Positions 9,142 to 32,315 of a DNA stretch of 64,000 nt are shown piece after piece. Source of the stretch: Eremomyces bilateralis CBS 781.70. Its lineage: Eukaryota. The position numbers and the translations under genes are program-made. The stretch lies in NCBI GenBank assembly GCA_010015585.1, contig ML975151.1; one strand, written 5' to 3'. The notes beneath the pieces are model-generated. The model was not told where the DNA came from, searched no databases, and saw only the letters and a program-made list of their open reading frames with translations. Every line of letters begins with the position of its first letter. Position 1 is the stretch's first letter.

Positions 9142-10513
9142 CTATATATTCCTGAGCCTAACAACCATTCTCTTCCCTCGAGTTTTCCCTTTTTTCAAGA
9201 TCTCCAAGCCTCTCTCGACTTGGCTAAGTCCGCCCTCCAAGACCTCTAAGTCCGGAAGCCTGAGGCTTGAACAGTTGATTAATTCGTTGAGCTTCTGTGC
9301 ATAGATGGCTGCTTCTTCATCCAGGACAAATCTTTTCATCTCCACCGTCTCCACCTGGACATGCTCCGGTATTTCCTCATCGTTCGCCATCATGGCGAGA
9401 GGTGCAAATCGGACTCTCGGGGTCTCACCTTTGCTCTCTTCAGTTGCGCGGCAAGTTTGAAGACACAATCCAGCGGTTTTCGGGCCAACCAAATCAATTA
9501 CCCGGCTGAGTCTGCCACTGGTCACTGCTCGAATTTCCTCCACAATCTCTTCCGCCGTCCGGTCATCGCGTACTACGACGTGGTCTGCTCCGAGTGATGT
9601 AGAGAGAGCTGCAGTACGACCCGAACAGACTGTAATGACTCTTAAGCCAGAGTGGATGGCGATTTGAGTCGCAAATTGACCTGTTACGGTACTTCCACCC
9701 CAAATCAGAAACCACTCCCCCACACCTGGCCTAGACGAAGCGGGAGAAACGCTGTAGTAGCCAGAATCCAGCGAATGTGGTGTTTCCGTCCCCAAAGAAT
9801 GCTCTGACGATTCAGGGCTCTTTGGATTTGGATCCGGATCTGGCATCGGTACATCCATCCATTTCCAGAGAGCCATAGCAGCAGTGAGGGCGCCGACGCC
9901 CAAGCAAGCTGCCTGCTCGAAGCTGAGGTCCGCGGGTATTGGAAGCACAGTGTGTTGAGGGACGATGATGTACTCTTGGAAACATCCGGCACGGACGTCT
10001 CGGTAGTACGTCGAAGTCCACACACGGTCTCCGGGTTTTACATGGTGGACGTTTTTCCCAACCTTGGCGACCGTGCCCGATGATTCTCTGCCAGTAATCT
10101 AACAATGGTTAGTACAAGCGGTTGTGAATGGTGAGGACACCTACCCATGGAAATGATGGCAAGCAGAAGTTGTATTCGACAGACTTCCAATCAATCGGAT
10201 TGAGGCCGACGGCATGATTCCTGATCATGACTTCATTGTCGTCTCGGATCTCCGGGACTGGGTAGTCGTCGCGGAGTGCGTACTCCCCCCTCCGCGCCAC
10301 GGTAAGTGCTTGTTGTACTTGTGGAGGCGATAATGATGTGTTTGCCGCTGGCTTTAAAGAATGTTTTGAAAATGTAGGTGCTTGCTTTTCCGATATCTCA
10401 ATCCCAACGATCGTGGTGGGTGTAGGAAGGTCTGACTTCTTTGCAAGCCTAAAAATTCGTCGTATTCGCGCTCGTAAGCGCCTGAGAGAGCTATGATCAG
10501 GCGTTATAGCCAT
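9142..10513 (-). CDS. Medium-chain (MDR) enoyl-/quinone-reductase-like oxidoreductase, 2 exons
   Basis: AVGLNPIDWK...FPW|ITGRESSGTVAKVG...KPGDRV...LSFEQAACLG...LIWGGSTVTGQFATQIA; intron ~10099-10144 (GTAGGT..CTAAC..TAG). Confidence 0.9.
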
Positions 10514-10945
10514 GCTGGTGAATATTGAACACCTAGAGCCGCTTCGAATAGGATCTGCAACGAAAGAGACGATACCGAGTGATTGACTTCTAAAATTCTG
10601 GTTGGGAAATGGCGATACGCACTTTGTACTCCCAATGGAAAGGATTAAATAAATAACAACGTACTATGTAAAGCAGTTTTCCAACTATTGCAACGTCAAC
10701 GCTCCTTATTCGGCTCAGTCCGTATTACAAAATCTGCTCGACAACGGCAGGATCGGGTGTCTCTTCCTAGGAACTGGTTACTGGTACCCCGTGCGGATGT
10801 GACAGCGAGCGGCTAGAGTAGTCTACTTTTGTCCATTCTGTTTGAAAGCCTCAAGAGCCGACGGCAGAGGACTTAAGCTTGCTGGACTGGGTTAGCGTTC
10901 GCGTCCTTGGAATGATGGGGAGGTTGAAGAGGGCGGTGGCCGGTT

Positions 10946-10975
10946 CGGAACTGCTTCCGACGGATTATGTTCCGA
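10946..10975. promoter_or_regulatory. Two tandem CGG-N8-CCGA sites upstream of the MDR gene
   Basis: CGGaactgcttCCGA (10946-10960) and CGGattatgttCCGA (10961-10975). Confidence 0.6.
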
Positions 10976-11068
10976 CGAGCTGCAGCCACGGCGAATAGAA
11001 TTGGACATTGACAATTTCACAAGTATGACGATATTCTGGACGCGCAAGATTGAAGATAGTAGCAAGAA

Positions 11069-13418
11069 TTAAATTGAATACGCTTCGTGACTCATCTCAA
11101 ATCCGATCAGGTCAAAGCCGCCCTGAATCGTGACCATGTTCTCCATAGCTCCAAACGTGTCGTCAAAGATAGCGTCGTTGAACTCCGGCCGAGTTGCATG
11201 TAGTTGCATCCGTTGTGTTTCGTCCGGAATGACCTGTGTCATCGGAGTGTCCATCATGGGAGCCACCATCATGGCTCCAGAGTGCCCGATTGAACCGTTC
11301 CCACCAAGTTCTGGTACTCGGACGTCCGGGACCGGATTTCCCGCCATGTCCGCAACCATTGCTGTTACAGCGGCCGATCCCTCTTCATTTCCATCCACGG
11401 ACATGAACAGCCCACGATTGAGTTGCTTGATGGCTCGACGAGGCTCGTACTTACTCTCCTTGATTGATTCGAGGACCGACTGCTTGACGGCTTCGTACAT
11501 ATCGCGATATTTCTTGGCTCCCGGCCAGCGCTCGGTGATGATGTATAGGACGATGCTGCAAGCATTCATGTCATTTGATGTGGTGATGCTGAAGACTTCC
11601 GATGGTGAAATCCAAGTACAGTAGACCAAAGTGAGACCTAAACGAATTAGCACATTGAAAATGAAATCTGGAGGGCGAAAACCGACCCGCAAGAAACACA
11701 GAATGCAGCGCCATGAGAGAAAACCCGACCGAGATGCTCTGGTGGAGCTTCTTGTACGTCTGGCAAACTCCTCCGCAAGCTTCCGCACATTTCATGATCA
11801 AACTAAGCGGCAGCTTTGGACCGGAAAGGACCGGATGCAGTAAGAACCGGAGGCACTTGTAATAGTACACCATGTAGTAGCCATACCCGTCTATGACTTT
11901 TGTGTCGGTTGTGGTAGTAGCCTTGTCGGCATTGTGTTCCCGTGCGTCTCTAGGGATCCGGTCTCTCCAATCGTCCAACTCTTTGATGAAGGTCTCGACA
12001 TCCGACTCGGAAGCACCCGAAGGCCGGTCAACACGGTATATGGTTTGTTGAATCTTGGATTCGATGCGACGTAGACAGCAGATGTGGATGAAGCAGCTGA
12101 GCGATGTGGACACAGCAGGCGGGTCGCTCTCGGATTTGGTTGCGACCTGCGCGGCCTCGAAGACTGCCGCGTCCTGGACGGATTCGTCGACATCGAGGGG
12201 TAGTTCAACATCGATATCCTGATCCGAAATGGCAAATGGGCGGCCTAGAATGATGGATATTTGTCGGTCTAGACAATAGCAGGTCCAGAAGATTCTCTTT
12301 CGCATCTCGTCTTCCAGGATCGAAAAGCGCTTGGGAGGACTCCGGCGGTGCATACCGAGGTCGATGCAAGTCCTCATAGCCAATCCGATACAAGTCCACG
12401 CTCCAGGCCCTTGGGGCGCCCTCAGGCTATAGATAGCGAGGAGGATCAAGATCTGGACGGAACGCACGTCGTGGTACTGGAGGACCTCGTCGAGATGCTC
12501 AATCCCTGCATCGTGATGTTTTTCGCAATAGAATGGCCCTGTCTGGCCAGTCGTCTCCAGGAACCGACCTCCGCTAGCATAGATGAGATGAAGTGCACTC
12601 TTCTCATACGGATCTGTGAGCGAGGCCCTACGAGTGTGTAGGATGCGGATGTAGTTGGAGTGAAATATCGGCCATCGGGTAGAAATGTGCTTCAGATATC
12701 CCTTGAGAAGCCGGTTTGCGGTGTCCTGCGGAATGCTTGCCGTTTCAACATAAGTATCTTCAATACTTGCATACGACAGTGATCTTGGGCTTAAATGCTC
12801 CCCGGGCTGAAGGTCAGGGCCGAAGTGTTCTTTGCATTTTACCAACGACCCTACCAGCTTACTCATAGTAATGCTGGATGACGCGCCAATGTATCCGCCA
12901 CTAGCCTGAAGCGACAGATCCCGCAGAATGTCTACCACCCCAGTACCTTCTTCCGACCTTCCCTCCCCGCTCCAGTCGAGCACTTCTCTTTTACCGTGGT
13001 CAGACTGGGGACTCTCGACGTGCGGTCGTTTGGCCGGTCTACGAATCTCAGAGGGTTCGGAAGAATCGGAGTGGTGGGCGGCTCGAAGTTGACGCCAGCG
13101 GGACTGGCCTTCATCAGCGATTCTTTCTCGCATCAAGACGGCCTCAAGTTCAGCGACACGGTTCTTCGCGGCTTTGTAATAGTCATCCTGACTCCTAGAG
13201 AGCGGCCTCGTGGGCTTGATGTATTTGCAAATGGCATCGAAGCTGGCACAATTGGAACAGGAAGGTGTCCGGCCATCACATTTCTGCTTCCGAGTCTTGC
13301 ATCGCTGGCAGGCCACGGCGACCCGGGCACGTCGTGCCGTTCTGGGTCTATCAGCTGTCGGCCCGTCCATTTGCTCGAGCGGGTTCTCGGATATAGCTGT
13401 GGGCGGAGTAGTAACCAT
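11069..13418 (-). CDS. Zn(II)2Cys6 transcription factor with fungal-specific TF domain, UaY/Ppr1-like, 2 exons
   Basis: ACQRCKTRKQKCDGRTPSCSNCASFDAIC; LAMRTCIDLGMHR...RKRIFWTCYCLDRQISIILGRPFAISDQDIDVELP; intron ~11639-11688 gives HSVFLAG|LTLVYCTW. Confidence 0.92.
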
Positions 13419-13919
13419 GATGCTCTGGTTAAAGACGCGCTATCTTTTCACAGAATCGAAAAAGGTAGTAGTAGTCGAGAGAGATCCGGAGGAGATCCCA
13501 GGATATGGGATCCTCTCCGGCCTCGAAGGGAGATAGTCATATGTTGGGTCATAGTCGATTATGCAACGCAACTGGGATAGGAGAAAGATAAGGGAGGGAC
13601 TTGAGCGATAGGAGATAAGTTCATGTATTATAGTGTAGTGTCAAAAACGGCGGAGTGGAGCTGGGAGGTACATTTAGCATGACTCATGAGCACCGAGGGG
13701 AACCTGTGGAGAATATATGTATCATGGGCTCATGGCTCATGAGTGTCGAGGTAGTGTTAAAAATGGGCCTTAAGGCTTGGCGTTTGAAGAGCTTTGAATT
13801 GTCACGTGGTTCGACTTTCAACCGCTCCTCAATTTACGGAACAAACGACACCAGATCAAAATCCCGGATACTATCAGGTATTACATACACAACCGCTATC
13901 CCTAGACATCTATCCTCGA

Positions 13920-15800
13920 CTATAGGGTTCCCTTCTCCAGAAAAGCAGTCGGAATGTCGATATGCTTGCTACGTAAGTACTCCGCAATGAACTTCCCCAG
14001 GATATCATATGTTGCATTGGCAGTCACTCCCCGATCAAGGTGATCATGCAGCAAGAAATGAACCGCCCAGAGATTGGGAAACTCCATTCGATCGATTTTC
14101 TGGCCCTTGTAGTCCTCGCCCATGAGTTCCTTGAATTTCTCCGAGCTCAGCAGGCTTCGCAGCCACGGCCATTCCGACGCGTCGCGAGCGAAGAATCCGA
14201 CATTGCAGTTCGAGCCTTTGTCGCCCGCCCTCGCGTATACAACCCGCCCCAGAGGGGCACGAGTCGTTGGTCCGAACTCTCCTAGGTCCACTGCATTTGT
14301 TGTCTCGTACGACGGTTGCGTCCATGGGTGCTCGATGGTCTCGGCTGCCGGAGGTACAATCACGTCGTCGTGGCCTGGTTTCGAGAAGTGGATGATTTGC
14401 GTCGGTTGTGGAATCAAGGTTGGGAAGTACTCGGTATACTGACAATGATGTTAGCTCGATCTCCGCGCATATTCCCTTTTTGGAACACCTACTGGCTTTG
14501 GCACCGCCGTTCGGAGGTCAGCGTGAAATGTAGCGGCTGGATATGTGTGCATGTTCATATCGAGCGCCGGGCGTATGAAGTTGGCTTCCGACAATGCTTC
14601 TGCTTCCTTTGCCTGAGCGAACAGTCGCATATCCACTGTTGCTGCGTTCTGATTTCGAGGATTCTCTGATGCCGTGCCGTACACTGACACATCCCAGAGA
14701 CTGAACTTGGAGAGTCTGGCTGTGCCAAAGCTGTGGCGCAGCTGCGTTTCTAGTAGCTTGACCTTCTCGTCAATATCTAGCCCGACCATCGCCCAATGGA
14801 CTTCGGCTTGGTACCCTCCAAAGGCCGTAAGCCCCATTTTCGTCGTTGCCGGCGGTGGCCGTCCGGTAATGCCGGAGAGTCGGACTCGGTTTGGTCCCAG
14901 CTGCGTGAGGCTAGCCTGGTCGATGACAGCTGTGACATCGCAGTTGAGGTAATACATTCCCTGGATCTCGTACAGAAGCTGTTCCTTGCAGGTTTCCACG
15001 CTCACCAAGCCACCCGTTCCCTCGGGCTTCGTGATGACGACGCCTCCTTCGCTATCGATTTCTGCAATGGGGTATCCAAAGTTGTTGATTCCATTCCAGT
15101 CTAGGCTTTTCCACCCAGTGAAGTTTCCGCCAGTCACATAGACTGAGCATTCAATCAAGTGGCCGGCAATTAATGACTGCGCGAGTTGGTCATAATTCGA
15201 CCTCGACCATCCATGCCACCACGCGGCAGCTCCAATGATTGGCGAAGCATCTGCCACGCGGCCACAGATGACGATTGACGCACCTTCGCTGAAAGCTCTG
15301 GCAATGGCCATCCCGCCGAGATAGCACTGCCCGAACAGGGGCTCGAACTCCCATTCTGCGAGCGTCTTTCCGGTTGAAACATGTCGGTAGCTGGAAGGAT
15401 CTTGCTTCAAGTCCTCCTTAACTTGGCTCAGAACGGAATCGCCTTCAATCCACGCCACGTTCAAGCCCAGTCCCTTCTCTTCCACCATCTTGATGACCAC
15501 ATTATATAGCTCTTTTGTTGCTACAACTCCAGCGTTGCATGCAAGCTTAAGTCCTTTCTTAGCAATTCCTTCAAGGGCCGGCTCCAAGGCTTCTAAAAAG
15601 CTGTCTTCATAGCCAATCCCGAGTCCGTTTGCCACGTTGTAGGCTCGAGTTGGCATGTTCAGCTCGCTCATCCAGTCCCCGACGAGCACGTCGACCGACT
15701 CCGACATGTTGACCGCATTGGAAAGGGCATCGCGTTTGTCACAAGGTGAGCCAGAAATGTTCATAATACGCACAGGGCGCGTTGGAGGATGGGACACCAT
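13920..15800 (-). CDS. AtuA-like / DUF1446 family protein, 2 exons
   Basis: VRIMNISGSPCD...DVLVGDWMSELNM...GASIVICGRVADASPIIGAAAWWHGW...AGHLIECSVYVTGGNF...EQLLYEIQG..YLNCDV; C-terminal PLGRVVYARAGDKGSNCNVGFF. Confidence 0.88.
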
Positions 15801-16438
15801 GTTGTCAATCTAGCAAAATCACAGTATGTTGGGGGAGGAGATGAAAAGGTGTATGTGAGCACTATTCAATTCTCTGCAAATATCAAATCTCGGTCTTATG
15901 TCTAACAGCAATAGATAGCAGTCTTGCCATATTATTGCCATTCGAACCCCACCGGAGCCGTTTGCGAGTTCGGATGTTTCTGGCAGCCATCCGGCAGGGA
16001 CCATGGACGGCAGCAGAATCCGCTCGCGTCCGCTCATATGTTTCCCAGGTTGGAACCGGCGGGGTTATGCGTAGTTCTGGAATTGACATTGTCGATGCCT
16101 TGAAATCGTTATCATTTCCCGTCGGTACCTAGACTCCGCTACGGACGATTAGACCGAACCCGCTACTATAGAAGACCAATATCTAGAGAAGATCGAGATC
16201 CAACGGAATGGTGAGCTGACCGTCGCTCTTGGAGTGCTCCGTATGTATCCTGCCAGTCGCGGATAACGAATCATGCTAATCGTGCAGGTGTCACAGGTTT
16301 GACTACGTTCTTTAGCATGATCGGAAAATAGAATGTACAGCCAATGGCCGTATTACAGCCCTTGAAACCAGGGTTCCGTTTCGTTAGGTATCTCGGTCCC
16401 GATCTGGACTCTAGATCCAAAACATCCCGGTCTTCCGA

Positions 16439-16453
16439 CGGAAGTGCTCCCGA
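16439..16453. promoter_or_regulatory. CGG-N8-CCGA site in the divergent AtuA/OYE promoter
   Basis: CGGaagtgctcCCGA preceded by TTCCGA, the same TTCCGACGGA junction as at 10955-10964. Confidence 0.55.
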
Positions 16454-16687
16454 CAGGACAAAGCTGCATCACGTGACTAGACTGAGGGTCGGCATGCCGA
16501 TCCTATAGCGAAACAACCTATGACATAGTGTCTATTACGGAATACAGGACCACAAATTAGGTAACATGGTCCGCACGCTAACAAAGGTCGGTATACTTTT
16601 CTCCAAGTCTTTCCGGGCAGATGCGTTGAACACCATCTCAATCCCATGCTCGTCCCTAATTGAGGTGTTTAACTAGCAACGACAGCG

Positions 16688-18102
16688 ATGGCCTCTACAC
16701 GCTCCCAACCGCTTCTATTTCAGCCACTGAAAATTGCCAATGGAACGATTGAGCTGAAACATCGAGTGATTCTGGCCCCCCTAACTCGCAATCGAGGAGT
16801 TCCCGTTTTCGAAGATACCCCAGAGAAGCCAAACCGAGACTGGTATCCCGATGAATTGGTTACTGAATACTATCAGCAAAGAGCAACGGAAGGTGGCCTT
16901 CTGATTAGCGAAGGTTTACCGCCGTCTCTACAGGTACTTTGTTTCTTACCCCACGGGCCACCTTTCCATCCGTAACTGATATCCCACTCTTCAAGGGCGG
17001 CGGAATGCCGGGCACCACCGGTTTGTATCTCCCCGAACATATTGTCGGTTGGAAGAAAGTCGTCGAAGCAGTACACGCCAAGGGCGGATACATCTATGCC
17101 CAATTGTGGCACTCTGGTCGCACAACCATCGCACCAACCACCGGCCTGCCGAGTGTCGCGCCATCAGCAGTGAAATGGGACGATCCAAACGAAGAATACC
17201 CGTACCCGCCGCCGGGCCACGACAAACGGGCCAAGTACCGAGATCATCCGCCGGTTGAATTGACCGTTAGCGATATCAAGCGCGTCATTGGCGAGTACTG
17301 CGAGGCTGCCCGTCGTGCAGTTGAGGAATGCGGTTTCGACGGAGTTGAGGTCCATGGAGGGAATGGGTACCTCCCAGAGCAGTTCCTGTCGTCCAATGTC
17401 AACATGCGGAACGATGATTATGGTGGAAGTCCGGAGAAGCGGTGTAGATTCGTTGTAGAATTGATGGAGGAGCTAGCCAAGACCGCCGGGCAAGAGAAAG
17501 TGGCACTCCGGTTAAGTCCTTTCGGGCTATTTAACCAAGCCCGGGGCTCGCAGAGGATGGGGACGTGGAGCCACCTCTGCAAAGAACTTAAGACGAAGAT
17601 TCCGCACATGTCTTACGTGTCATTCATCGAGCCGGTATGTTGTTCCCTTTTTCGTGCACACTTGAGGTTAAGCTGATTGATGGACTGCCAGAGATATGAA
17701 CAGGTCTTCAGCACGGCGGAGAAGGACTCATTTCTCGGGTCATGGGGTCTAGAAACTGTCGACCTTTCCCACTTCCGGAAGGTTTTTGGCGACACTCCAT
17801 TCTTCAGTGCCGGAGGCTGGTACGACGGAAACTTTTCGGGAGTTTTGGAGTCCGGCCGGTACGACGCCTTGTTGTTCGGGCGCTGGTTTATCAGTAACCC
17901 TGATCTGGTTCGCCGGTTAAGGGAAGGTTTACCGTTGAGGATGTATGAGCGGGATAGATTTTACGGGCCGTTTCCAGACAGGGAAAGAGGCTATACTGAT
18001 TATACTGCCTGGGATGTGGAAAAGGAACACAGTGCAACCGTGGACGGTATAAAGGGGGACGTTGCAACTACTTCTACAGTTGAAGTAAAGGCATCAGCAT
18101 GA
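16688..18102 (+). CDS. NADH:flavin oxidoreductase (old yellow enzyme family), 3 exons
   Basis: HRVILAPLTRNRG...YYQQRAT.GGLLISEG...IYAQLWHSGR...GFDGVEVHGGNGYLPEQFL...RNDDYGGS.EKRCRF...GRWFISNPDLV; catalytic HxxNxY present. Confidence 0.93.
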
Positions 18103-18564
18103 GCCGTACGCCTGAAGGGATGAACAGAATGAGATGGTCCTTGGTTGCGGACTCTAAATGGGCATTTTCGGGTTTTCGATTTTCATTAATATATGGCATC
18201 CTTCGAAGAACAGTCTGGAGGCGTGAAACCCTCCCGTGATCCGGTAAAACCATTCAGTGAATTATGTGCATGATGAAGCCTTTTTTAAAGGCGAGCTCTA
18301 CTCTAAACGTCCAATGCCGGTTTTCCGGGGAGAGGGGTGTGGCTGGGGGGGGGGGTGAACGGCCATGACATTAGAATTGAACTTCTGAAAGCTAGTCGAA
18401 CAACTTGTCCTTCCAATCGATGGATTGCAGGCTCCAGTATTCAGCTATGATTATGATGGAGTGCAAGTGGTGATATTGACTACATGATCCTACAGAAAGA
18501 ATTAATACAGCTCAAATGGCACTGATGCCAGAGGGTTTTCTTGAAAATAGTTCCTTCAATTCCA

Positions 18565-20194
18565 CTAGGTCTTAACTACTACGGGTTCCTTCCCAACCAC
18601 GACGCTGCCTTGTGTCAGAGGAACTTCAATGTCGTTCGTTTTGCTTTCACCGTTGGTTCCGTTCACACTCTCTTTTACCGCTTGCTCCGCTTTGAAGGCT
18701 TCGATTGTGTCCCCTTCAAACCCACTCCCCCACTTGAACTTGTGCCCGTAGTGATCATCCCTCAGACGAGTCTGACCCTTGACTCCATACAGGTTCTCCC
18801 GCAATGTACCTCCTTCCACGTCATAGTCTTCCCACATGAGACCTCTCTTTACTAACTCGGGTCGCAGAAGGTAGACAACGTCCTCGAATGTGCCAGGGCT
18901 GGTCACATAAGCAATGTTAAAGCCATCAACATCTGCTTCGTTGATCCACTGCTCAAATACATCGGCCACCATCTCTGGAGTGCCAACAGGGGCCGGATGG
19001 AAGCCACCAAGAGCCATGGTCTCGCCTAGTCTTCGAGGAGTCCAAGGTTCCGTGTTACCGGTTGCTTTGTTGAAGTTCTCCAAGAACGTATGGGTGGCGT
19101 CATCTCCAGGAGCATCTTTTAACTCAAAGACTTCGTCGAGCGGGAAGCGGGCCAGATCAATTCCGGTATAGCCAGAAAACTGTGCAAGACCGCCAACGAC
19201 GTCTGCGTCCTGTCTTGCCTGTTCATACTTCGCTTGCGCCTCTTCCAGTGTTCGTCCAATAATTGGGGTGATACCGACAAAGAACTTGAGAGATTGGGGA
19301 TCGCGCCCTTCGGCAGCTGCGTCGGCACGGATCTGAGCAATTGATCCGGCAGTCTGTGAGGGGACCAAGCCTCCAACATAGATGGCTTCAGCATGCTTAG
19401 CGCCAAATGCACGACCCATCTTGGATGTTCCGGCTTGGAAGAGAACCGGAGTGCGTTGAGGAGAAGGGTGAGTTTGGGAGGCGGCCGAAGCTTTCAGATA
19501 TTTGCCTTGACCCTCAATTAGTATCACGACTCTTCGATAACTGGAACACCGCAAACATACCCTTATGCTCAATTTTCTTCACCTTCGAGGGCTCAAAAGC
19601 AACTCTGTTCTCCGCGTCCCAGACAACCGCATCATCCGCCCAAGAGCTCTCCCAGAACTTATAGACCAGGTCCATGTATTCATGAGCCACTGCATACCGT
19701 TCATCATGCGGCACAACATCATCTGCACCCAACGCTGTCGCTGCGGCCTTGCTCCAGCTCGTGACAACATTCCATGCAACTCGTCCATTTGTGAGATGAT
19801 CCAAGGAGCTGAAAGTCCGTGCCAGAATGTACGGTGTCAGGTAGCTGGTGCTGCCGGTGACGCCGAAACCAACGGACTTGGTGACGGATGCCATCGCCGG
19901 AATGAGAACCATCGGGTCCAATCCAGCGGAATGTGCACCTGCACGGAGAATCGGGGCAGTGCTTCTCGAGTAGACATCAAAAAGAGAATAGGAATCCGCA
20001 AAGAAGATGAAGCTAATTTTTCCTTCCTCAGCGAGGCGAGCAAGATTCAGCCAGTATGGCAGTCGGTCTTTGCCGGAAGTCCGGTCGTATGGTGAGCGCC
20101 ATTGGCCTGGCGACATATGGGACCCAGTGCACGCATTTTCGAAGAAGTTGAGGTATATCCTCTTCTTTGGGGGGGAGACTGTGGGCGGAGACAT
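18565..20194 (-). CDS. NtaA/DmoA/DszA-family FMNH2-dependent (luciferase-like) monooxygenase, 2 exons
   Basis: LARLAEEGKISFIFFADS...DPMVLIPAMASVTKSVGFGVTGSTSY..PYILARTFSSLDHLTNGRVAWNVVTS...PSPQRTPVLFQAGTS..GRAFGAKHAEAIY...DGFNI...GTLRENL. Confidence 0.93.
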
Positions 20195-20486
20195 TGCGAT
20201 GGTTCGATAAGTTCTTCAAACGACTTTCTGAAGGGCGAATGGCTGCGTGAGGACCTCTTGCTATCAAATGGGAGCGTCAAAGGCTTATAATACGTATGGA
20301 GAAAGCAATTACTGGTCTATCGGCCCGGACAACCGTCTGCGGGTTTGAACTGCAGTAGGAGTCAGGCCAAAGGCCCGACTCGGAAACAGCCGCGAGCATC
20401 ACATTAGCATCTTACGATCTCCGGAGTTTGGAATCGATAACAAACGAAACTTAGGTGGACTGGGAAAGTAGTTTATGAGATGCCGT

Positions 20487-20521
20487 CGGCACATATTCCG
20501 ATGGGTCGGAGAGGTTCCCGA
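20487..20521. promoter_or_regulatory. Two TCGG-N8-CCGA sites 20 bp apart in the divergent monooxygenase/MFS promoter
   Basis: tCGGcacatattCCGA (20487-20501) and tCGGagaggttcCCGA (20507-20521). Confidence 0.6.
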
Positions 20522-20570
20522 TCGCTTGGATCAGGGTTCCCGATCGGTTGGATCAGGGGCTGATCAGGGG
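20513..20570 (+). repeat. Short tandem duplication (22-bp unit x2, then GATCAGGGG)
   Basis: ggttcccgatcgcttggatcag / ggttcccgatcggttggatcag / ...gatcagggg. Confidence 0.7.
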
Positions 20571-20809
20571 CTCCCTATTGGTCGTCCCCAAAGCGCTAAC
20601 CTGTTTAGGAACAGTGACCCATCGGGGGCTGCTGCGGGGTTTTTTGTACAGTTTACTACGGAACATGGGTAATAGGGTAATAGTTCGTTAACTTCTGAGT
20701 TCGTACTGTGTACAATCATACTCTGTACTCCGTACACTTGGTACTCTTGGCCGTTGGATAATTTCGTAAATTCTGTGATTTTTTCAAGACTTCAACGCTG
20801 CTGTCAACA

Positions 20810-22641
20810 ATGGCAGAATACCGAGAAAGACCACCCCAGGAATCTACGATACAGCAACCACAAGAACTTGTCGACACTCAAGACTATTCCAACCAATATT
20901 CATTCTCAAGACTGGTTATAATTCTTGCGGCGCTGGCATTTACTCTCTTTGTTTCTTTCATAGATCAAACCAGTGTTTCGACGGCACTGCCAGCAATTGC
21001 CAAATCGCTCGATGCGTACGAGTCGATATCATGGGTTGGCACCTCATTTCTGGTTGCAAATACGTCGTTTCAACTGATAAATGGCCGGTTAAGTGACATA
21101 TTTGGTCGGAAAAACTGTCTCATGTTAGTGTCTTGAAATAGAATAGCAAAAACATTTGCTGATTGATCAGGACTTGTATGGCTCTGCTTGCAATCGGAGA
21201 CTTGCTGTGTGGATTTGCAAAGACTCCAGCGCAGCTATATGTGTTTAGAGGAATTGCTGGTGTTGGTGCTGGTGGAATTAATAGGTAGGCGCCTCTTAAC
21301 CTTTGTATGGAATCATTGCTGATTAACGATTAGTTTGGTTATGATCATGTTCACAGACATGACGACCCTAGAGCAGCGAGGAAAGTACCAGGGACTTCTT
21401 GAGACCAACATAGCTTTAGGAAATGGAGTTGGACCCCTAATAGGGGGCGCCTTCTCACAGTCATCCGCAACATGGCGATGGGCATTTTGGTTCGTCGTGC
21501 CAGTCACAGTGATGGCAGCAGTGCCAACCTACCTCACTTCACCCAAAAGCAAGTTGGTGGGAAATATGTCTGAGAAGCTGAGAATGATAGATTATGGAGG
21601 CATGGTGCTCAGTCTCTCTTGTGTCATTTTCCTGCTTGTAAGTCAACCACTCCTAAATCATTCCAGTGCCAGAATAACCAAATAACAATTGACCAGATTC
21701 CCATTTCATCCGGCGGAACCACGTGGAGCTGGTCATCACCTCTCATCATATCTTTTCTTGTGATCGGAGCCTGTCTTGTAGTATTATTCGTCGTCTTCGA
21801 ATGGAAGTATGCCAAGTATCCAGTTATGCCTCTACGAGTATTCGACAGGCGTTCGGCAAAGATCCTCTTCATGCACAATCTCTTAACCGGCATAGTTTAT
21901 TACTCGGACCTTTATTACCTGCCGTTATATTTCCAAGTCGTCCTTGGCCATTCACCCTTGGAATCTGGCCTGCTTATCCTGCCACTTATCCTCGGATTCT
22001 CAGCATCTTCCACAACGGCTGGATTTCTCCTTTCCCGCCTGGGACGCTGCAATCCTGTTATCTGGGCTGGCTACGTGATGTGGACTGCAGGCGCAGGAAC
22101 CCACATCGCCTTCGGATCGTCGACTAGCATCGGAGTCACCATTGGATGTCTTTTGGTCGAGGGATTCGGTATCGGATTTTCGTTCCAGCCAGTTATGATC
22201 GCACTACTGGCTAATACCAGGAAAGAAGACCGAGCCGTTGTTACTGGAATGCGTAACTTTATCAGGACTGTCGGTGGGGCAATCGGACTGGCCATCTGCG
22301 CAGCAATTATCAACAACGTGCTGCAGGCTAACCTACCACCGTCCATGCCAAGTCAGAGCGGGATGGAAATGATCGGCAAGCTGGACCAATTGACTCCGGG
22401 GGAGCAGAGCGCACTCAGGGAGGCGTACATGAAGGGTTTGGACATTGTATTCCGTCTCGCTTGCCCGTTGATAGGATTCTGTCTTCTCACAAGCGCGGCG
22501 TTGACTGATGTTCCGTTAGCAACGGCACACGAACCGCAGGAGCAAAGCGGGCCTGCAATCGACGAGAAAGACTCGGGGGCTGCAAGTTCCTCACCTGCAA
22601 AAACTGAGATCACAATTGATGTGGACTTGCAAAGGAAATGA
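20810..22641 (+). CDS. MFS transporter (DHA2-like drug/H+ antiporter type), multi-exon
   Basis: FVSFIDQTSVSTALPAIA...WVGTSFLVANTSFQLINGRLSDIFGRK...LEQRGKYQG...GPLIGGAF...WRWAFW...YYLPLYFQVV...RNFIRTVGGAIGLAI. Confidence 0.9.
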
Positions 22642-22806
22642 CGATAGATATCAATGATATTTAACTAATAGTTAAACATTGTAAAAAGCATCCTTGAAAG
22701 CAAGCTATTTTGAAACCCTGCACTAGACTATGGTGGTTCTATGTGCAGTTTAATATCTACGGTACGGCACCATACAACATACCAGTGTCTCCAGTGTCTC
22801 CAATGT

Positions 22807-23682
22807 CTATTGGTATTTAGTCAGAAATGGAGACAAAGCTTTCGCAATGCCTTCTACATCTCTATCCGGCTCAAAATTGCCGCCAGTAATCTCAATCGCT
22901 TGAACTCCTTCTCTCAAACCATGGACATGTCCAAAGTACCTCCATAGAACATCGTCTCTTGCACACATCAGCAAGATTGGACAGGAGACCTGTTTATATA
23001 AATCCTCGCTTTTCTGAGCCCAGACTGCCCCGTAAATCAGCATCCGTCCTTTCCATGCCCGAATATGATCCACTGCTTCCCTCTGCCACAACGTGATGTC
23101 TTCACCAACCCCCATATTGCCGAGATACTCCCAGGTCTTCAACAAATGTGATCCATCCCGGGCCGGTTCGTTGAATGGCTTGAAGAATATTTCCTTCATC
23201 GCTGCTCTTTCTTCCACCGACATCACTGTTGGCCCGACAAGGCAAATAGTCGCCACGAACTCAGGATACCGGGCAGCAAATTCGACCGCGAGAACTGCTC
23301 CGGAATGGTGTCCGATGATATGGCATGGCGTCGTGCACCCATTGCCCGCGAGTCCGAGAGCTTCAAATGCTTGCATGAAGGTGGCGGAATACCATACCGT
23401 CCCTTGTTCTTCGATCTCCGCTATCGCGGCTTTCGACGGGTCGAAACTCCCTCCGAATCCGGGCATGTCCGGAGCATAGCATGCGTAGCCTTGCGATGCA
23501 TAGTATTGCATGAGTAACTCATAGCTTGCAGATGATGAAGCAGACTTGTGTAAGAAGATAATTGGTTCCTTTTGTATGGTGGTTTGGGTGGAAGGAAAGA
23601 TATATCGGTAGTGAATCTGGCCGTGGGAGGTGTCGACATACCCCTTTTTCAAGACTGGGGAAAGTAATTTCTGGGCAGGCAT
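22807..23682 (-). CDS. Alpha/beta-hydrolase-fold protein with atypical catalytic motifs, intronless
   Basis: KGYVDTSHGQIHYR...PIIFLHKSASSS...YAPDMPGFGGS...HIIGHHSGAVLAVEFAARYPE.VATICLVG...CPILLMCARDD; ATG at 23682. Confidence 0.85.
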   Translation of the reverse strand: MPAQKLLSPVLKKGYVDTSHGQIHYRYIFPSTQTTIQKEPIIFLHKSASSSASYELLMQYYASQGYACYAPDMPGFGGSFDPSKAAIAEIEEQGTVWYSATFMQAFEALGLAGNGCTTPCHIIGHHSGAVLAVEFAARYPEFVATICLVGPTVMSVEERAAMKEIFFKPFNEPARDGSHLLKTWEYLGNMGVGEDITLWQREAVDHIRAWKGRMLIYGAVWAQKSEDLYKQVSCPILLMCARDDVLWRYFGHVHGLREGVQAIEITGGNFEPDRDVEGIAKALSPFLTKYQ

Positions 23683-23955
23683 GGTTGCTTGGCTTATCGA
23701 AAAGGGGTTGGTTGAATTTGATGGATGGAGGGAACACCGAAGCCCGTGGGAATCAAAGGTCACATAAATAACAAATAAAGATAAATCTAATGTCGATAAC
23801 TATGGATACCGGCATTGCGTTCCGAAACTGGCACATTGCTTCCGATGATAGATATCCAGTTCCGACGCACTCTGCCTTCCGCCAAATCTAATTCAGATTA
23901 CACTAGATCAACGAGGATACTCAGGAACTATTCTACTCTCGCATCCTTTACACAA

Positions 23956-25933
23956 TTACCCAGCCATACCCTTCAGCGACGGCGTGATGCTTGCCTTTTC
24001 CACATCATTCGGTGTATCTGTACCGCTGGGGGAAAGGCCTTCAATGACGTGACCCTCATTTCCGAATGGAACCCTTTCGTATGGCTTTCCAGGCGGCGGG
24101 CTGATGAGACAGATAATGAAGTATATCAATCCAGCGCCAATGAAGCCGATAAACCAGGCTGTCTGGAATAGTTTGAGCCATGCAGGCGCTAACTTTGCAC
24201 CACCAGTGGCTACAACGAATCCCGCTTTTATGGTAGTTAGTAGCACGAACTGCAACTAGTTTGAATGTGAAACTTACGGAAACTGGGGAAGATCCCAATG
24301 GTCCAGGCGGTGAATGCTCTCCAGTTCAGCCCGAAAGTGTACCAGTAAATTGAACTCTTGTCACCGATGTACAGATGCGGAACGGTCCAGTTTCGCCGTC
24401 GGACGAACCAACTGTCGCAAGCGTTAGTGATTCGTGGTTCATTTTGGCACTGGAATCCTACAAGTCGACCGCATTGATCGCGGCAAGAGGCGACACAAAC
24501 ATGCCGAAAGAGTTCAGCACGGTAATGAAATTGCCAGGTGCGTTGACGAATCGCCATGGATTGATCAGATATCCGATGAGGCACATGATAAGACTACCAC
24601 GAGTAACGTCAACCCATCTCGGAGCGAGGGATGCAAGATCCATGCCGGCGGCGACTGAATTCTGGACTAGATTAACCTGGAATAATCAGTACTGAAATTT
24701 AGGAGATCGCGCTGAGCTAGTCGCTTACCGAAATCTGACTCAAGAAGAAGCCTAGTCCGGCAAAAAAGCAGCCGGCGCGGGTGGCAGCATTGTAATTATC
24801 GGAGAGAAGGAATTCTAGTAGTGTGATGGGTTGCCAGATCTCCTTGCCGTACATTGACTTGACGGCGCTCGTAGCGAATGTTCCAAGAGTTGCGGTGACC
24901 GTAATCGCAATGGGAACAGTGAACAGTTGGTTCAGCACAGGAGTTCTCTTGGTCTTTGCATATCGAGTCCAGTCGGCTTGTCTACGGCGTGTCAGCGGGC
25001 TATACAATAGTTTACATATGGTTTGACAAACCTGATTGCGCTACCTGTCCAGGAACCAGCAACTGAACTGACTGCTTGCAACATCTTGAACTTTCGGGTA
25101 CTGTCATCGACCTGGATCGATGCAGCAAGAGCAGAAGCGCCTCCATTGGAGGCAACTGCCCATATAAAGAGCCCGACAATGGTGGCAAGAACGGCGCCAA
25201 AAGCAAACCAGAGTAACCTATGCATTTTGGATGGATGAATGAGCATCAAAGGAGTGAAGATCATGATGTAAATGATGAACCCGATGAGCTGATTCGTGGT
25301 GATGGCTGCTTCGAGAGGAAGAGTGTTCCTCATATTTTGGAACGAAGGGAATATGGCTGAAAGGACAACTTTGACTGCAAGGCCGCCCCAGTATGCTTGA
25401 ATGCCGAAGCTACATAGACAATTAGGAGGCTAGATAGTGCCATAGAGAGACAAGCTTACTAGATGAAGTTGACGAAGCATTTAATCATGACGACAAAGAA
25501 GGATCCATACATTCCAAACGCAACCCGGCTCATCATTGGAAAGCCAATATGATATTGAACCTGCCAACTTTAGTTAGAGAGGCTTGAGGCGGATGGTGAA
25601 AGGTTGACTTACCCCTGGCTCTGCGCAAATAAAGGAAATAAGGCCTGCAAGAACTGATCCAACAAAGACCATGCCAATGGTCTCTCCAGCTGAGAGTCCA
25701 TTCGCGAGGTTACTCGATCCCAGTGTCCAGGCAGAGACGTTCACTGTTGCTGCAATCCAGAATCCGAAGTAGCCGCGCTGTGTGTAGTTGCGCTCCTCTG
25801 GGGGCGAGGGTGCACAATCGTGGTTCGTCCATCTGTTGAAAGTTGCTTCATCATCCCCTTCCTGCTTGACCTCCAAGGAGGTGAAAGTCCGGGGAATATG
25901 GACACGAGCCCTCAACCCGTTTAGGGCATTCAT
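23956..25933 (-). CDS. NCS1-family nucleobase/allantoin-type permease (Fur-like), multi-exon
   Basis: RWTNHDCAPSPPEERNY...FWIAATVNVSAWTLGS...ADWTRYAK...IWQPITLL...RAGCFFAG...GMDLASLAPRWVDVTRG...INPWR...GLNWRAFTAW. Confidence 0.9.
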
Positions 25934-26411
25934 GGTGACAACTTGTAAACGGAGGGGAATTCCGTTAAGTGCCAAATGAACAGGGAGCTTCAAGAAATAT
26001 TTATATCTAGCATCCCGCGTTTGTTGCAAAGAGCACTGGCGCAAGTTCTTGCTTGCATCCTGAGTACTGATTACCGATACCATGAGGCTGGAGACCAGAT
26101 AGATCGGAAGTGCTTCCAGCGCAAATGGTGAATGCCATACTGAATCGTAATTGCGCAGTAAACGAGCCCCTAAGAGAGATGCCTAGACTTTCCTAGAGGT
26201 TGTTGCTATCTGTTGTGGAGCAACCAAAGATACGAGCGCAGAGATACCCCAGGTTACTATAGTTCCCGCGAACACGTTCGGAACCCCGGAACTTCATTTT
26301 GAGCTTATCAGCAGATCTACAAGACAGCGACAAAATTTGGTTTTCTTAGTGGACTGGTTAGTGTCACCGATGATAGATTGGTTCAAGGAGATTGGAACAT
26401 CTGCGACCAAC

Positions 26412-26426
26412 CGGAATCGTCCCCGA
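26412..26426. promoter_or_regulatory. CGG-N8-CCGA site in the divergent NCS1/flavin reductase promoter (near-site at 26105-26118)
   Basis: CGGaatcgtccCCGA; near-match CGGaagtgcttCCA at 26105. Confidence 0.5.
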
Positions 26427-26754
26427 AGTCTATCGAACTTTCCGATGCGGTACCTGTAGCCTGTATCAGAGTGGCGGATGCACGCAACGAGGACTGTAGG
26501 AGTTTTCGACTTCGTCGGTTGGGACGACATACCACCAATGAGTTGCTAACTTATGGCAGGTTCGCATTGGAAAAATTCTTGCAAAAAGCCTCGTAGGGTT
26601 CCAAGATCTAGATGTATCGACCTTGCCGCAGTATCGACGGATAAACGTCGAAGTTTGACACCTGTTGCAAAATAGCAGCTGCCTTCTAAGGATTTGTTAA
26701 TATTCCTCTCCCCCCTACGGGTACTTTCCGGTAGTTACTTTGGTTCTCTAAATC

Positions 26755-27663
26755 ATGGCTTTTTCCCAAATCACGAACCTCCACGTCGAGGCATTCGACA
26801 AGGAAGCGTTGGTCCAACGGAACCCACATGCCGAGTTTCCAGCCGTCGAGGCCTCTCGTCCTGACTACGATCCGTCCAAATTCTGGGAGTACAGCAAAAC
26901 CCCTAAACCGAACTGGAAGCCGGGAAGTGGTTCTATATGCGATGCATGGAAGTCGCATACTCTCATTGCCATCGATCCCGATTCGCCAAACCGGACACAG
27001 AATCAGAACTACAAGTTGATGATTTCATCCACGGTTCCACGGCCCATTGCTCTCGTCAGCACAGTATCACGAGAGGGTGTACATAACCTGGCCCCGTTTT
27101 CCTACTTCAACACCGTCAGTGTGGATCCACCGCTTTACTCCGTCAGCTTCGTGGGGACAGAAGCCAATGACAGCTTGACCAACGTTCTCGACTCTGGGGA
27201 GTGCTGCATCTCTATCGTCAGCGACTGGTTTCTCGAAGCAGCAAACATGACGTCGGTGAACACCCCTCCACACGTGAGCGAATGGCCACTATCCGGACTG
27301 CATCCAGTCCATTCGCACATGGTCAAGCCACCTCATGTGGGAGAATCGGCGTTCAGCATCGAATGCCATGTGCACAGCACTATCCCAATCTACTCCCAGA
27401 GAGAAGTCCACGACGACGGACGTAAAGTGAGGACAGCTACCATGGTATTGTTTCGGGCAGTTATGTACCATGTGCGAGACGACGCCATCAACGATCGAAT
27501 GGAAACAGTAGATATTGGGGTGCTAAGGCCGGTATGGAGAGGAGGAGGTATTACATATGGCAGTTGTTTTGGCGGTTGGGAGACAGAAAGACCGAAGGCC
27601 TTTAGACATCTAGTGGAGCAGGAGGATGTCAAAGCTGTGCTTAACCAATTGCAAGTTTCATAG
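26755..27663 (+). CDS. Flavin reductase-like FMN-binding split-barrel protein (DIM6/NtaB family)
   Basis: NYKLMISSTVPRPIALVSTVS..GVHNLAPFSYFN.VSVDPP...DSLTNV...SEWPLSGL.P..S.MVKPPHVGESAFSIEC...LRPVWRGGGITY. Confidence 0.88.
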   Translation: MAFSQITNLHVEAFDKEALVQRNPHAEFPAVEASRPDYDPSKFWEYSKTPKPNWKPGSGSICDAWKSHTLIAIDPDSPNRTQNQNYKLMISSTVPRPIALVSTVSREGVHNLAPFSYFNTVSVDPPLYSVSFVGTEANDSLTNVLDSGECCISIVSDWFLEAANMTSVNTPPHVSEWPLSGLHPVHSHMVKPPHVGESAFSIECHVHSTIPIYSQREVHDDGRKVRTATMVLFRAVMYHVRDDAINDRMETVDIGVLRPVWRGGGITYGSCFGGWETERPKAFRHLVEQEDVKAVLNQLQVS

Positions 27664-27848: not shown

Positions 27849-28871
27849 TTAAGCTAACTGGCCCTTCTTGTACGGGAACTTCTCTCGGAAATTTTCCGCA
27901 ATCTGTGTCCTCGTTGCAACCCATACTCCCTCCTTTGTAGCAATGTACTCGACAAACTTCTGCAGGGCTGCAAACCGGGCAGGCTTCCCAATGCATCGAC
28001 AGTGCAACCCGACCGTCATCATCTTGGGCATTCCTTCCACACCCTCCTGATACAGCACGTCAAAAGCGCCCTTGACATGATCGTAGAAATCCATCGGCGC
28101 GCTGAATCCCGTGGCAACGTTGAACTTGTAGTCGTTGCAGTCGTATGAGTACGGAACCATCAGCATTCCTTGAGGGTTTGGCTCGTCCTTCTCGGCAGGT
28201 ACGTCCACCCAGTACGGAATGTCGTCGGCATATGAGTCGGATTGCCAAAGGAGAGGGAGGCCCATTTCCTTGTAAACATCCCATATAAGAGCATGAGATC
28301 GCGGTGAAAGACGTCCGTAGTACCACCCTTTGGGGTAGACACCGCTGACGTCTTTGATGGCTTTGATTCCCTTGCGAATGTATTCCTTCTCCTCTTCCGG
28401 GCCAACCGTGTGATAATCGATCCAGCGGTAGGCGTGCGATGCAATGTCGTGACCATTCTCCACCGAGGACTTGGCGACGGCGGGATTGTCTTCGAGGGCT
28501 TTGCCAACGGCATACAGAGTATATTTCATATTGTGCTTGTTGAACAAGCGAATGAGGCGCCAGACGCCGGCCCGGGCCCCGTAGTCATACTCGGATTCGA
28601 TATTGACTGCTCGCTCCTGGACATGCGGAGTTCCGCCCGGAGCTTCCCACAGGTGGGTCTCAGAATGAACGTCGCCGTTCAAGACAGTATGTTCTGCTCC
28701 TTCCTCATAGTTGATGACGAACGAGACGGCGATCTTCGCATTATTGGGCCACTGGGGATGGTGGGACTTCTCGCCGTATCCGATGAGGTCGCGAGGGAAG
28801 TCATAGTGGTCGTTCCATTCATATGGTGCAGCCTTCAAGGCATCCGATCCAAGATTGTATGGCGTAGACAT
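27849..28871 (-). CDS. Polysaccharide-deacetylase-fold cyclic amide hydrolase, PuuE allantoinase / HxnM type
   Basis: PRDLIGYG...PQWPNNAKIAVSFVINYEEGAE...ESEYDYGARAGVWR...HDIASHAYRW...GWYYGRLS...DSYADDIPYW...VPYSYDCND.KF...MMTVGLHCR.IGKPAR. Confidence 0.9.
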   Translation of the reverse strand: MSTPYNLGSDALKAAPYEWNDHYDFPRDLIGYGEKSHHPQWPNNAKIAVSFVINYEEGAEHTVLNGDVHSETHLWEAPGGTPHVQERAVNIESEYDYGARAGVWRLIRLFNKHNMKYTLYAVGKALEDNPAVAKSSVENGHDIASHAYRWIDYHTVGPEEEKEYIRKGIKAIKDVSGVYPKGWYYGRLSPRSHALIWDVYKEMGLPLLWQSDSYADDIPYWVDVPAEKDEPNPQGMLMVPYSYDCNDYKFNVATGFSAPMDFYDHVKGAFDVLYQEGVEGMPKMMTVGLHCRCIGKPARFAALQKFVEYIATKEGVWVATRTQIAENFREKFPYKKGQLA

Positions 28872-29392
28872 ATTGCTTGAGGAAGAGAGAGGGTAGGAAG
28901 AAGAATAGGATGTCGAAGGTCACGACTGTCTCGCCGCGAACAATGGTCCTACTTCTACTCACCTGTAATCCTAGATAAGCCACAATCAGCTCTTCTATTC
29001 TCGCTTGAACCTCTATCGTCACCTGAATTAGCAATCGCCCCGCCCCTCTAAATGGGAGGAGCAACTATTCCGACGGGTGATCGGATTCGGCACATCCGAT
29101 AGATAGTCGGGGCACCAGAGATGATACCGAACGGCCCGGCATCGGCTTGGATCATAGTGCTCTTCGAGATGCGATAAGAGCAATTGAACAAAACCGTGAG
29201 CTGCATATTGACTTCTATAGCCTCCTACCTTTTCCAGTGTTCTGAGCTCCAAAGAATTTGACAGCAGCAAGCCGGGAAGTTGACAGTTCGCTCAAATCAC
29301 GTATCTCCATAGCCCGCCTACAATTTTAGATCCTGTTACCCCTGGAGACGATACCTTACCCTTTTTGGACGCCAGTCAGTGACATCACAGTC

Positions 29393-31119: not shown

Positions 31120-32315
31120 ACTACTTAGCCGGCACTGTTAGACGAATGCAGTACTATCCAGGTGCAAGCCGGCCCTATTATAATCAATTTACGTTTAAAT
31201 TAGAGCCCAAGAAAACTTTATTATGTTGCCGAGTGTCGTCAGCCGCTCTACAGTTATATTCAGCAGAGCTTTCGGTCAACCAAATCGACATCGATATATC
31301 ACAGTGGATGGGTTATCTCACCAGCCACTCATGTCTCCTCTCCTACCATAGCGACGTGAGAGTTCCGGACGAAGAAAAATAAGCTTAGCCGATTACATTC
31401 TATTTAAGTATAAACTAATGAATCCCGATTCCCATTCCGCTACCACAGGATCTGACAGTATCTGGAAATCGGAGTTTGATTACGCCAAAATATGCTGTTG
31501 CCCCACCCGAGCCCCCACCCAGACCACCCAACAGATCCCCCAACAGACCCCGTAATTAACGGACCCCTCAAGGTACATAGTATGCACATAGGCATACTAA
31601 TGCTGTATTTGACCACCTGTAGCGCCACCAGTATCGTTTCTATTTTTAATAAAAAAACTCTTGGTAACTACACGTGAAGAGAGACATCGTATAAATCAAT
31701 ATAATTTAGAATAATAAGAAATAGAGCATATTTATTGACATTGTGGCAGGTGGTTGGTGAGGTGAGGTTTGAGGTTGGCAATTTTGCTACACTGTGTCTA
31801 CCATAATTAATGGACTGCTGTACGGAGTAGTACCGTACCATACACAATATTTGTACCCCGTACCCTGAGAGAACGTCCTGATTCCATCAACTTCAACCAT
31901 CTTTTCCGACTCTTTTTTCAGATTTACGAGATATCTACCAGCTAACTCCCGAAAGGGGCTTCTTTTCCCTCGAGTACAGCGGTTGAATACCATATTCCTT
32001 TTCAATGGACTGAATGCAACCCTGAGAACCTAATAGGTAGGTCCATTAAGTGCTGACAAAGAGAAGCAGCTATATCTCTGAAGTCAAGCTGCACGAGTCT
32101 TCAGCGAGGGGTCATGCTGTGAAGACGTGCAAGTGCTACGATGCTAGAGGGCTGCAGGCTGCGCCTCGGGCACAGCCTTATCTATCTCCTTTCGGCTTTT
32201 TAGATGATTCTATTTTATTCTCATTGATCCTCTACTTTTCGTTAGCGTCGCCTTCATGTCCTGATTTCAGTCTACAAATATGGCTTCATTTTCGACCGAT
32301 TTCGAGTTATGAGAC

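Follow-up and report, generated by a model that had tools for sequence, protein, structure and literature searches.

What is the function of the palindromes that recur between the genes of an eleven-gene run in the fungus Eremomyces bilateralis CBS 781.70, and which protein reads them? The run spans ~9.1-31.1 kb of a 64,000-nt stretch of contig ML975151.1 (assembly GCA_010015585.1), referred to here as the window, and includes a gene for a Zn2Cys6 transcription factor at 11069-13418. An earlier note, made from the letters of the window, had singled out six exact copies of CGG-N8-CCGA, in which two inverted CGG triplets are separated by an eight-base spacer (N8), as candidate binding sites for this resident factor. 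The sites exist, exceed chance, are specific to the promoters of the cluster, and are kept in related clusters. They are probably upstream activating elements of a conserved catabolic cluster, read by the resident Zn2Cys6 factor as a homodimer on N8 units. More than the N8 dyad, it is the half-site TTCCGA that gives the strongest and most general signal.

Sites in the cluster promoters

The six CGG-N8-CCGA sites start at positions 10946, 10961, 16439, 20487, 20507 and 26412 and lie in four intergenic regions, and all of these coordinates and strings are as the earlier note had given them. Three of the six (starts 10945, 20486 and 20506) extend to full palindromes, TCGG-N8-CCGA. The first two sites form a double site at 10945-10975, where TCGGAACTGCTTCCGA is followed by an abutting CGGATTATGTTCCGA with a period of 15 bp. 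Since this pair lies 3' of the factor gene, ~100 bp beyond its stop codon, and ~435-460 bp upstream of the ATG (10513) of an MDR-type zinc dehydrogenase gene, it is assigned to the dehydrogenase promoter and not to that of the factor. A composite element, TTCCGA-CGGAAGTGCTCCCGA (CCG-A-CGG-N8-CCGA), occupies 16433-16453 in the promoter shared by the divergent genes for an AtuA-family protein and an old-yellow-enzyme-type (OYE) flavin mononucleotide (FMN) oxidoreductase. It is upstream of both genes, 235-255 bp from the OYE ATG (16688) and ~630-650 bp from the AtuA ATG (15800).

The divergent promoter of the FMN monooxygenase and MFS transporter genes carries two full palindromes, TCGGCACATATTCCGA and TCGGAGAGGTTCCCGA, at 20486-20521 with a period of 20 bp. 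A 22-bp tandem duplication (two copies, 95% identical) at 20513-20556 copies the right half-site of the second palindrome and contributes a further TCCCGA at 20538; the duplication may illustrate how an array of half-sites grows. Between the divergent genes for an NCS1-family permease and a flavin reductase, the stretch 26412-26445 combines CGGAATCGTCCCCGA, an N8 site, with a TTCCGA at 26440, ~330 bp from either ATG (26083 for the permease, 26755 for the reductase), and an extra TCGGAA occurs at 26278. The same promoter contains a near-site, CGGAAGTGCTTCCAG, at 26105-26119, only 22 bp upstream of the putative permease ATG; its right triplet is not CCG, and it retains the TCGGAA half-site.

TTCCGA also marks two promoters that have no N8 site. 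In the hydrolase promoter, three direct TTCCGA repeats with 20-bp spacing (23820, 23840 and 23860, within 23810-23865) lie 138-183 bp upstream of the ATG (23682), and the first of them forms a pair, CGG-N9-CCGA, with a CGG at 23810. This triplet of half-sites had been missed in the earlier note. The promoter between the genes for a PuuE-like hydrolase and an amidase is the weakest member of the set, with TTCCGACGG at 29068 and a CGG-N16-CCGA pair at 29108 (together 29068-29132), ~200-260 bp upstream of the PuuE-like ATG (28871). The window contains TTCCGACGG exactly three times (10955, 16433 and 29068) and never on the opposite strand. Both these positions and the spacer CGGAA[C/G]TGCT[C/T]CC, common to 10946, 16439 and the near-site at 26105, had been described before and are confirmed, as is the presence of CGG triplets with a six-base spacer (N6) at 10711 and 20381. 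Overall, the sites precede start codons by 135-650 bp and occupy the middle of three divergent promoters, positions that fit upstream activating sequences. The promoter of the factor gene itself (13419-13919) contains zero TTCCGA and zero N8 sites.

Enrichment was assessed by simulation and by comparison with the remainder of the window and with eight promoter regions outside the cluster. Over the whole window, CGG-N8-CCGA gives 18 strand matches, compared with 8.9 +/- 3.6 in shuffled sequence (1 of 100 shuffles reached 18). Six of the 14 distinct sites fall in the 4555 bp of cluster promoters (p = 2.4e-4), which makes N8 the best of 21 spacers. In the six enzyme and transporter promoters (4054 bp), six N8 sites were found where 0.54 would be expected from the rest of the window (Poisson 2.2e-5), and none of 5000 first-order Markov simulations of these promoters reached six. 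Full palindromes number three in the enzyme promoters versus 0.08 expected, a count reached in 1 of 5000 Markov simulations.

Because the N8 pattern had been picked by eye, assumption-free scans of hexamers and dyads were also run. TTCCGA/TCGGAA is the most enriched of 1710 hexamers, with 14 occurrences in promoters and 31 elsewhere (p = 4e-7; Bonferroni 7e-4). A comparison with other promoters of the window gives the same picture: the density of TTCCGA is 3.7 per kb in the cluster enzyme promoters versus 0.81 in the eight non-cluster promoter regions, and 0.70 in the whole window. When half-site density is controlled, the window promoters contain six pairs with N8 spacing, whereas the 29 other spacers average 1.14 pairs and none exceeds 3. 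A spacing of N6 is at background, with 2 of 14 CGG-N6-CCG sites and 2 of 6 CGG-N6-CCGA sites (p = 0.06) in cluster intergenic DNA. Apart from the 22-bp tandem duplication, no repeats longer than the sites were found to link the promoters.

The motif in related clusters

Metagenome contigs were scanned with an alignment of the factor and 15 homologs, which yielded 23 loci. Three of these (L010, L013 and L017) were dropped as near-duplicates of L002, L012 and L015, and factor-only loci were dropped too, leaving ten non-redundant loci with a combined length of 101,153 bp. Promoters, taken to be the stretch of at most 600 bp that precedes an enzyme or transporter gene, make up 10,119 bp of this sample. 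Gene limits were taken from tblastn searches with the exons of the window, together with Pfam; a six-frame open reading frame mask for coding DNA was rejected since it masked 84% of the sequence, including true promoters. Seven genes form a core that occurs in several gene orders: MDR dehydrogenase, flavin reductase, NCS1 permease, alpha/beta hydrolase, Zn2Cys6 factor, AtuA, and FMN monooxygenase. All seven are present in L012 and L015, five in L004, four in L008, and three each in L002 and L009. The factor gene accompanies the cluster in every arrangement and is the sole regulator in the conserved core. The OYE, MFS, PuuE-like and amidase genes had zero tblastn matches in the related loci and are therefore regarded as additions in the window's cluster. 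In L014, the hydrolase frame at ~393-600 apparently contains an in-frame stop a few codons past the candidate ATG, which could be an intron, a sequencing error, or a sign of another start.

Evidence that the motif is conserved came from the same tests applied to these loci. TTCCGA/TCGGAA is again at the top, here of 2017 hexamers, with 27 occurrences in promoters versus 43 in 91,035 bp elsewhere (p = 2.4e-10; Bonferroni 5e-7), and TTCCGA is found in 14 of the 18 promoter regions. Of the 18 sites that match the pre-specified pattern CGG-N8-CCGA, seven fall in promoters (p = 0.0012). For the close loci L001, L002, L004 and L005, in which the factor is at least 55% identical to that of the window, there are four N8 promoter sites versus a mean of 0.17 for 29 other spacers (P = 3e-5). 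None of the nine CGG-N6-CCGA sites in the related loci is in a promoter. Promoters that serve only the factor gene contain five TTCCGA in 4134 bp, which is near background. Given that factor promoters are at or near background for TTCCGA, autoregulation via the motif is unlikely.

The closest relative, L001, with a factor 85% identical, retains the double site upstream of the dehydrogenase start, as in the window. The two double sites align without gaps and are identical at 24 of 31 positions; all seven substitutions are in the spacers, and TCGGAA, AATCCGTCGG and TTCCGA are unchanged. The flanking non-coding DNA is identical at 41 of 93 and 184 of 370 positions (44-50%), with 46 gap columns. 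A second conserved block, CTCTGCC(G/A)TCGG at 10853-10867, appears in the same alignment, separated from the double site by ~90 bp; the window's version includes CCGACGG (10858), and the block is among the best-conserved 31-column stretches of the intergenic alignment.

Locus L004 (factor 57% identical) has a different gene order, in which the factor gene adjoins that for flavin reductase. Only two N8 sites occur in its 7991 bp, and both are full palindromes: one, TCGGAACCCATTCCGA, stands between the genes for flavin reductase and permease, and the other, TCGGGATTGAAACCGA, precedes the hydrolase ATG by ~135 bp. The permease/flavin-reductase promoters of the window and L004 have no alignable similarity, so the sites there represent conservation at the level of the motif and not a positional footprint. 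Full palindromes likewise precede the hydrolase gene in L011, L012 and L014 and the AtuA gene in L015. Counting window and loci together, nine full palindromes are in defined enzyme promoters, a tenth is at the L001 dehydrogenase promoter, and three are elsewhere, at window position 51270 (in the UPF1 coding sequence), L005 position 3059, and L012 position 21186. The L005 N8 site at 3059 was rejected as a regulatory site, being within the N-terminal coding or leader region of the factor and not kept in the relative L004; an N8 site in L003 was rejected because it is inside coding sequence. The recurrence of motif and factor gene together, in clusters with other gene orders and unalignable promoters, is in line with the regulon that the earlier note had envisaged.

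Candidate readers of the motif

The resident factor has the domains of a canonical zinc-cluster regulator, with Pfam scores of 36.9 bits for Zn_clus (cut-off 21) and 122 bits for Fungal_trans. Its six cysteines are invariant in 16 homologs, and the closest solved relatives of its DNA-binding domain are Put3, Ppr1, Hap1 and Gal4. A conserved segment, Y..A...RV(A/E)(E/D)LE..L, lies ~20-22 residues after the last cysteine and is a putative dimerizing helix. The homodimer model is the best supported because the domain is canonical and resembles those of dimeric binders, because this segment is conserved, and because the factor is the sole core regulator and travels with the motif. Under this model, the recognition unit would be a CGG with fixed flanks, TCGGAA (TTCCGA on the opposite strand), and the inner flanks would give specificity. 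In this fungus and its closer relatives, the units would mostly be arranged as inverted pairs with an eight-base spacer, with the consensus TCGGAA-N4-TTCCGA, and each such unit would be bound by one homodimer via the short helix after the zinc cluster. N8 pairs often come as doublets with a period of 15 or 20 bp, suggesting that two dimers may sit side by side. Binding would jointly induce the promoters of the dehydrogenase, AtuA/OYE, monooxygenase/MFS, hydrolase, and permease/flavin-reductase genes; for the PuuE-like/amidase promoter, this is less certain. We infer from sequence the identity of the binder, its dimeric mode of binding, activation as opposed to repression, the inducer, and the substrate.

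Several observations weigh against homodimers on N8 units. In the window, N8 sites are absent from two of the six enzyme promoter regions, those of the hydrolase and of PuuE-like/amidase. The looser pattern CGG-N8-CCG has 6 of 25 sites in the cluster promoters (p = 0.007), which is not significant over 63 classes of orientation and spacer. CGGA-N7-CCGA ranks first among 568,948 four-letter dyads with spacers of 0-20, with seven of ten occurrences in promoters, spread over four regions, and a p-value (9e-7) that becomes 0.52 after Bonferroni correction; taken by itself, the N8 dyad thus falls short of significance in the window. What makes the result significant is the half-site, together with the simulations and the pre-specified test of N8 in independent loci. 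Among the close loci, L002 (factor 61% identical) has N8 sites in none of its promoters; that of its dehydrogenase/AtuA genes contains only look-alikes with N9 or N10 spacing and one TCGGAA. In L006, the 290 bp that follow the factor gene are likewise devoid of sites. The strong half-sites themselves are spaced heterogeneously, as N8, N9 everted, N12, N16, and N17 direct. The loci are partly kin (L012 with L015; L011 with L012 and L014; L004 with L005), so the counts overstate the number of independent events, and the promoter limits based on tblastn take in some coding sequence. In the more distant loci, where the factor is ~40% identical (L008, L009, L011, L012, L014 and L015), the promoters contain 11 pairs with N16 spacing versus a mean of 1.38 (P = 2.4e-7), seven with N17, and five with N8.

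The ratio of N8 to N16 sites is 10:2 in the close group and 5:11 in the distant group (Fisher p = 0.009), figures that are exploratory since the N16 spacing was found post hoc and several of the loci are kin. In the window, there is one N16 pair only. Homologous N16 sites in L012 and L015 have kept their triplets while their spacers changed, so the N16 sites look functional too. Base frequencies around 43 promoter TTCCGA sites show a weak CGG signal at the N8 and N16 partner positions and little else, and 22 of 25 enzyme promoter regions have at least one N8 or N16 pair. An apparent enrichment of N10 in the loci (8 of 15) was set aside, since at least three of these sites (L011 735, L014 157 and L015 8442) share a conserved spacer and apparently belong to an unmasked 3' exon of the permease gene. 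The N8 spacing attributed to the factor by the earlier note is upheld as the preference in the window and close relatives, and does not extend to the distant clusters, where N16 is favored. The factor and the geometry of its sites may have co-evolved across the N8 and N16 lineages.

One alternative, rather unlikely on the present evidence, is that the resident factor reads a single extended half-site, TCGGAA, as a monomer in the manner of Pho7 and AlcR or as a loosely tethered dimer, with N8 as one packing among several. Such a reader would suit the enrichment of the half-site, which greatly exceeds that of any dyad in the window and in the independent loci alike, as well as the three direct repeats at 20 bp in the hydrolase promoter and the varied pair spacings, with N16 dominant in distant relatives. 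It also has a precedent in Pho7, which binds TCGGAAATTAAA as a monomer, as stated in the portion of PMC6265462 available. However, N8 remains an outlier once half-site density is controlled, in the window as in the close relatives, and L001 has kept the spacing without an indel while the letters of the spacer changed. The conserved helix-like segment after the zinc cluster, as in dimeric members of the family, likewise argues for a dimer.

A second alternative, considerably less probable, places the reader elsewhere in the genome: the motif would be read by a wide-domain regulator or a second zinc-cluster factor, and the resident factor would recognize something else. While the lack of TTCCGA in the factor's own promoter, and hence of an autoregulatory link, is consistent with such a reader, and sites based on CGG are common to many zinc-cluster proteins, the factor gene is accompanied by the motif in all of the related clusters recovered, rearranged as they are. 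The window's non-cluster promoters are at background, and no other regulator belongs to the conserved core. That the sites are functionless products of chance, base composition or leftover duplicated promoter DNA is strongly disfavored and barely credible: the pattern was picked by eye, plain CGG-N8-CCG fails correction, and one extra half-site stems from the 22-bp tandem duplication, but no simulation reached six N8 sites, no longer repeats link the promoters, the same word ranks first in independent loci, and N8 sites recur in unalignable promoters.

Gene content, known systems and meaning

The families of the eleven genes were assigned with Pfam and NCBIfam. On the minus strand are the MDR-type zinc dehydrogenase gene (9142-10513), the factor gene (exon 1 at 13418-11685, one intron, exon 2 ending at 11069), the AtuA-family gene (13920-15800), the gene for an NtaA/DmoA-family two-component FMN monooxygenase (18565-20194; ATG 20194), the alpha/beta hydrolase gene (22807-23682), the NCS1-family permease gene (24237-26083, with several exons and an approximate 3' end), and the gene for a hydrolase with a PuuE-allantoinase-like deacetylase fold (27849-28871). 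The plus strand carries the OYE gene (16688-18102), the MFS transporter gene (20810-22641; ATG 20810), the flavin reductase gene (26755-27663), and a gene for an amidase-signature enzyme (29644-31119, coordinates without the first exon). The nearest solved relatives of the monooxygenase are dimethyl-sulfide monooxygenase and LadA, and the PuuE-like hydrolase matches PuuE structures with an E-value of 1e-89; for AtuA, no solved relative was found by sequence. Past 32 kb, the genes are unrelated (HET, a C2H2 protein, heme oxygenase, UPF1 and others). The first of these, a large gene with a HET (heterokaryon incompatibility) domain at 32313-34991, directly adjoins the cluster.

The gene content suggests the breakdown of an imported nitrogen heterocycle: alongside an NCS1 permease there are hydrolases and a two-component FMN monooxygenase with a reductase partner, to which the window adds the PuuE-like enzyme and the amidase. 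The cluster resembles the bacterial Rut pathway in roles only. Membership in that pathway was rejected: the monooxygenase scores 211 and 228 bits against NtaA/DmoA profiles but 26-36 bits against RutA (cut-off 498), and a scan of family profiles gave no RutF or RutD match for the flavin reductase and hydrolase. A full-text literature search found no description of the cluster or the factor, only bacterial or unrelated papers. A wider scenario has also been considered: a widespread ascomycete catabolic regulon that degrades an imported nitrogen heterocycle and fills a Rut-like role with different protein families, combined with a switch of spacing between lineages, with N8 where the factor is at least 55% identical and N16-17 where it is ~40% identical and its linker after the zinc cluster is shorter by 2-3 residues. 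In this full form, the scenario is speculative and unlikely.

UaY, which controls purine catabolism in Aspergillus nidulans, and Ppr1, which controls the yeast pyrimidine pathway, recognize TCGG-N6-CCGA. These sites have the same T...A outer flanks around inverted CGG triplets, and both proteins control nitrogen-heterocycle pathways that include permeases. The difference is in the spacer, which is 6 rather than 8 bases, and N6 is at background in the window and in the related loci.

The spacing itself matches that of the cellulase-mannanase regulators ClrB/CLR-2/ManR, which are likewise Zn2Cys6 factors with inverted CGG triplets exactly 8 bases apart. The site of ClrB/CLR-2 is CGG-N8-CCG according to the available portions of PMC8313289 and PMC13267753, and for A. 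nidulans ClrB, the same portions of PMC13267753 and PMC8313289 cite the finding that binding is abolished when either triplet is lost. Because this site is already documented, N8 is not a new spacing class, and the list of known spacings in the earlier note (Ppr1/UaY N6, Put3 N10, Gal4 N11) was incomplete in omitting it. One difference is that the ClrB/CLR-2 regulon consists of scattered genes for plant cell-wall enzymes, whereas the sites here belong to one catabolic cluster. The TCGGAA/TTCCGA inner flank, present here, is not among the features of ClrB/CLR-2 sites described in the accessible parts of PMC8313289 and PMC13267753. The name ClrB is absent among the 120 factor homologs listed, which carry generic names only; Mollisia scopiformis and Cladophialophora carrionii are among the species with such a homolog. 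AmyR also uses an eight-base spacer, with the triplets arranged as CGG-N8-CGG (PMC8313289, same portion).

Other zinc-cluster systems share individual features with the sites described here. GliZ, one of the regulators of secondary-metabolite clusters, has a predicted site, TCGG-N3-CCGA, that occurs in most intergenic regions of its cluster and not upstream of the regulator, as far as the available text of PMC4006717 goes. The logic of a cluster-resident Zn2Cys6 factor and a TCGG...CCGA palindrome is the same, but the GliZ spacer is N3 and the cluster is biosynthetic rather than catabolic. One Pho7 site in Schizosaccharomyces pombe begins with TCGGAA and is read by a monomer, in the same part of PMC6265462 as above. 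Pho7 and AlcR of A. nidulans recognize a single CGG with an extended asymmetric flank and have no dimerizing helix, in contrast to the conserved helix-like segment and the N8 excess seen here. The Oaf1-Pip2 element, CGG-N3-TNA/R-N8-12-CCG, places inverted CGG triplets 14-18 bases apart (PMC2784042, from the extract at hand), a spacing comparable to that of the N16 and N17 pairs in the distant clusters; Oaf1-Pip2 is a heterodimer and controls a fatty-acid regulon.

Taken on the sequence evidence, the motif is a real cis-element with the resident factor as its putative binder, and half-sites and other arrangements matter too. No principle is changed by this result, since a cluster-resident Zn2Cys6 factor with CGG palindromes in the promoters of its cluster is the expected arrangement. 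The finding would bring a second protein lineage into the N8 class of zinc-cluster sites, and for a conserved, uncharacterized fungal cluster it supplies a candidate regulator as well as a cis-element that is concrete and testable. The motif allows prediction of the regulon in any genome that carries the factor, and reporters built on it could be used to screen for the inducer and so lead to the substrate of the pathway. If the split between N8 and N16 clusters is true, these fungi would offer a natural series for studying how half-site spacing is set.

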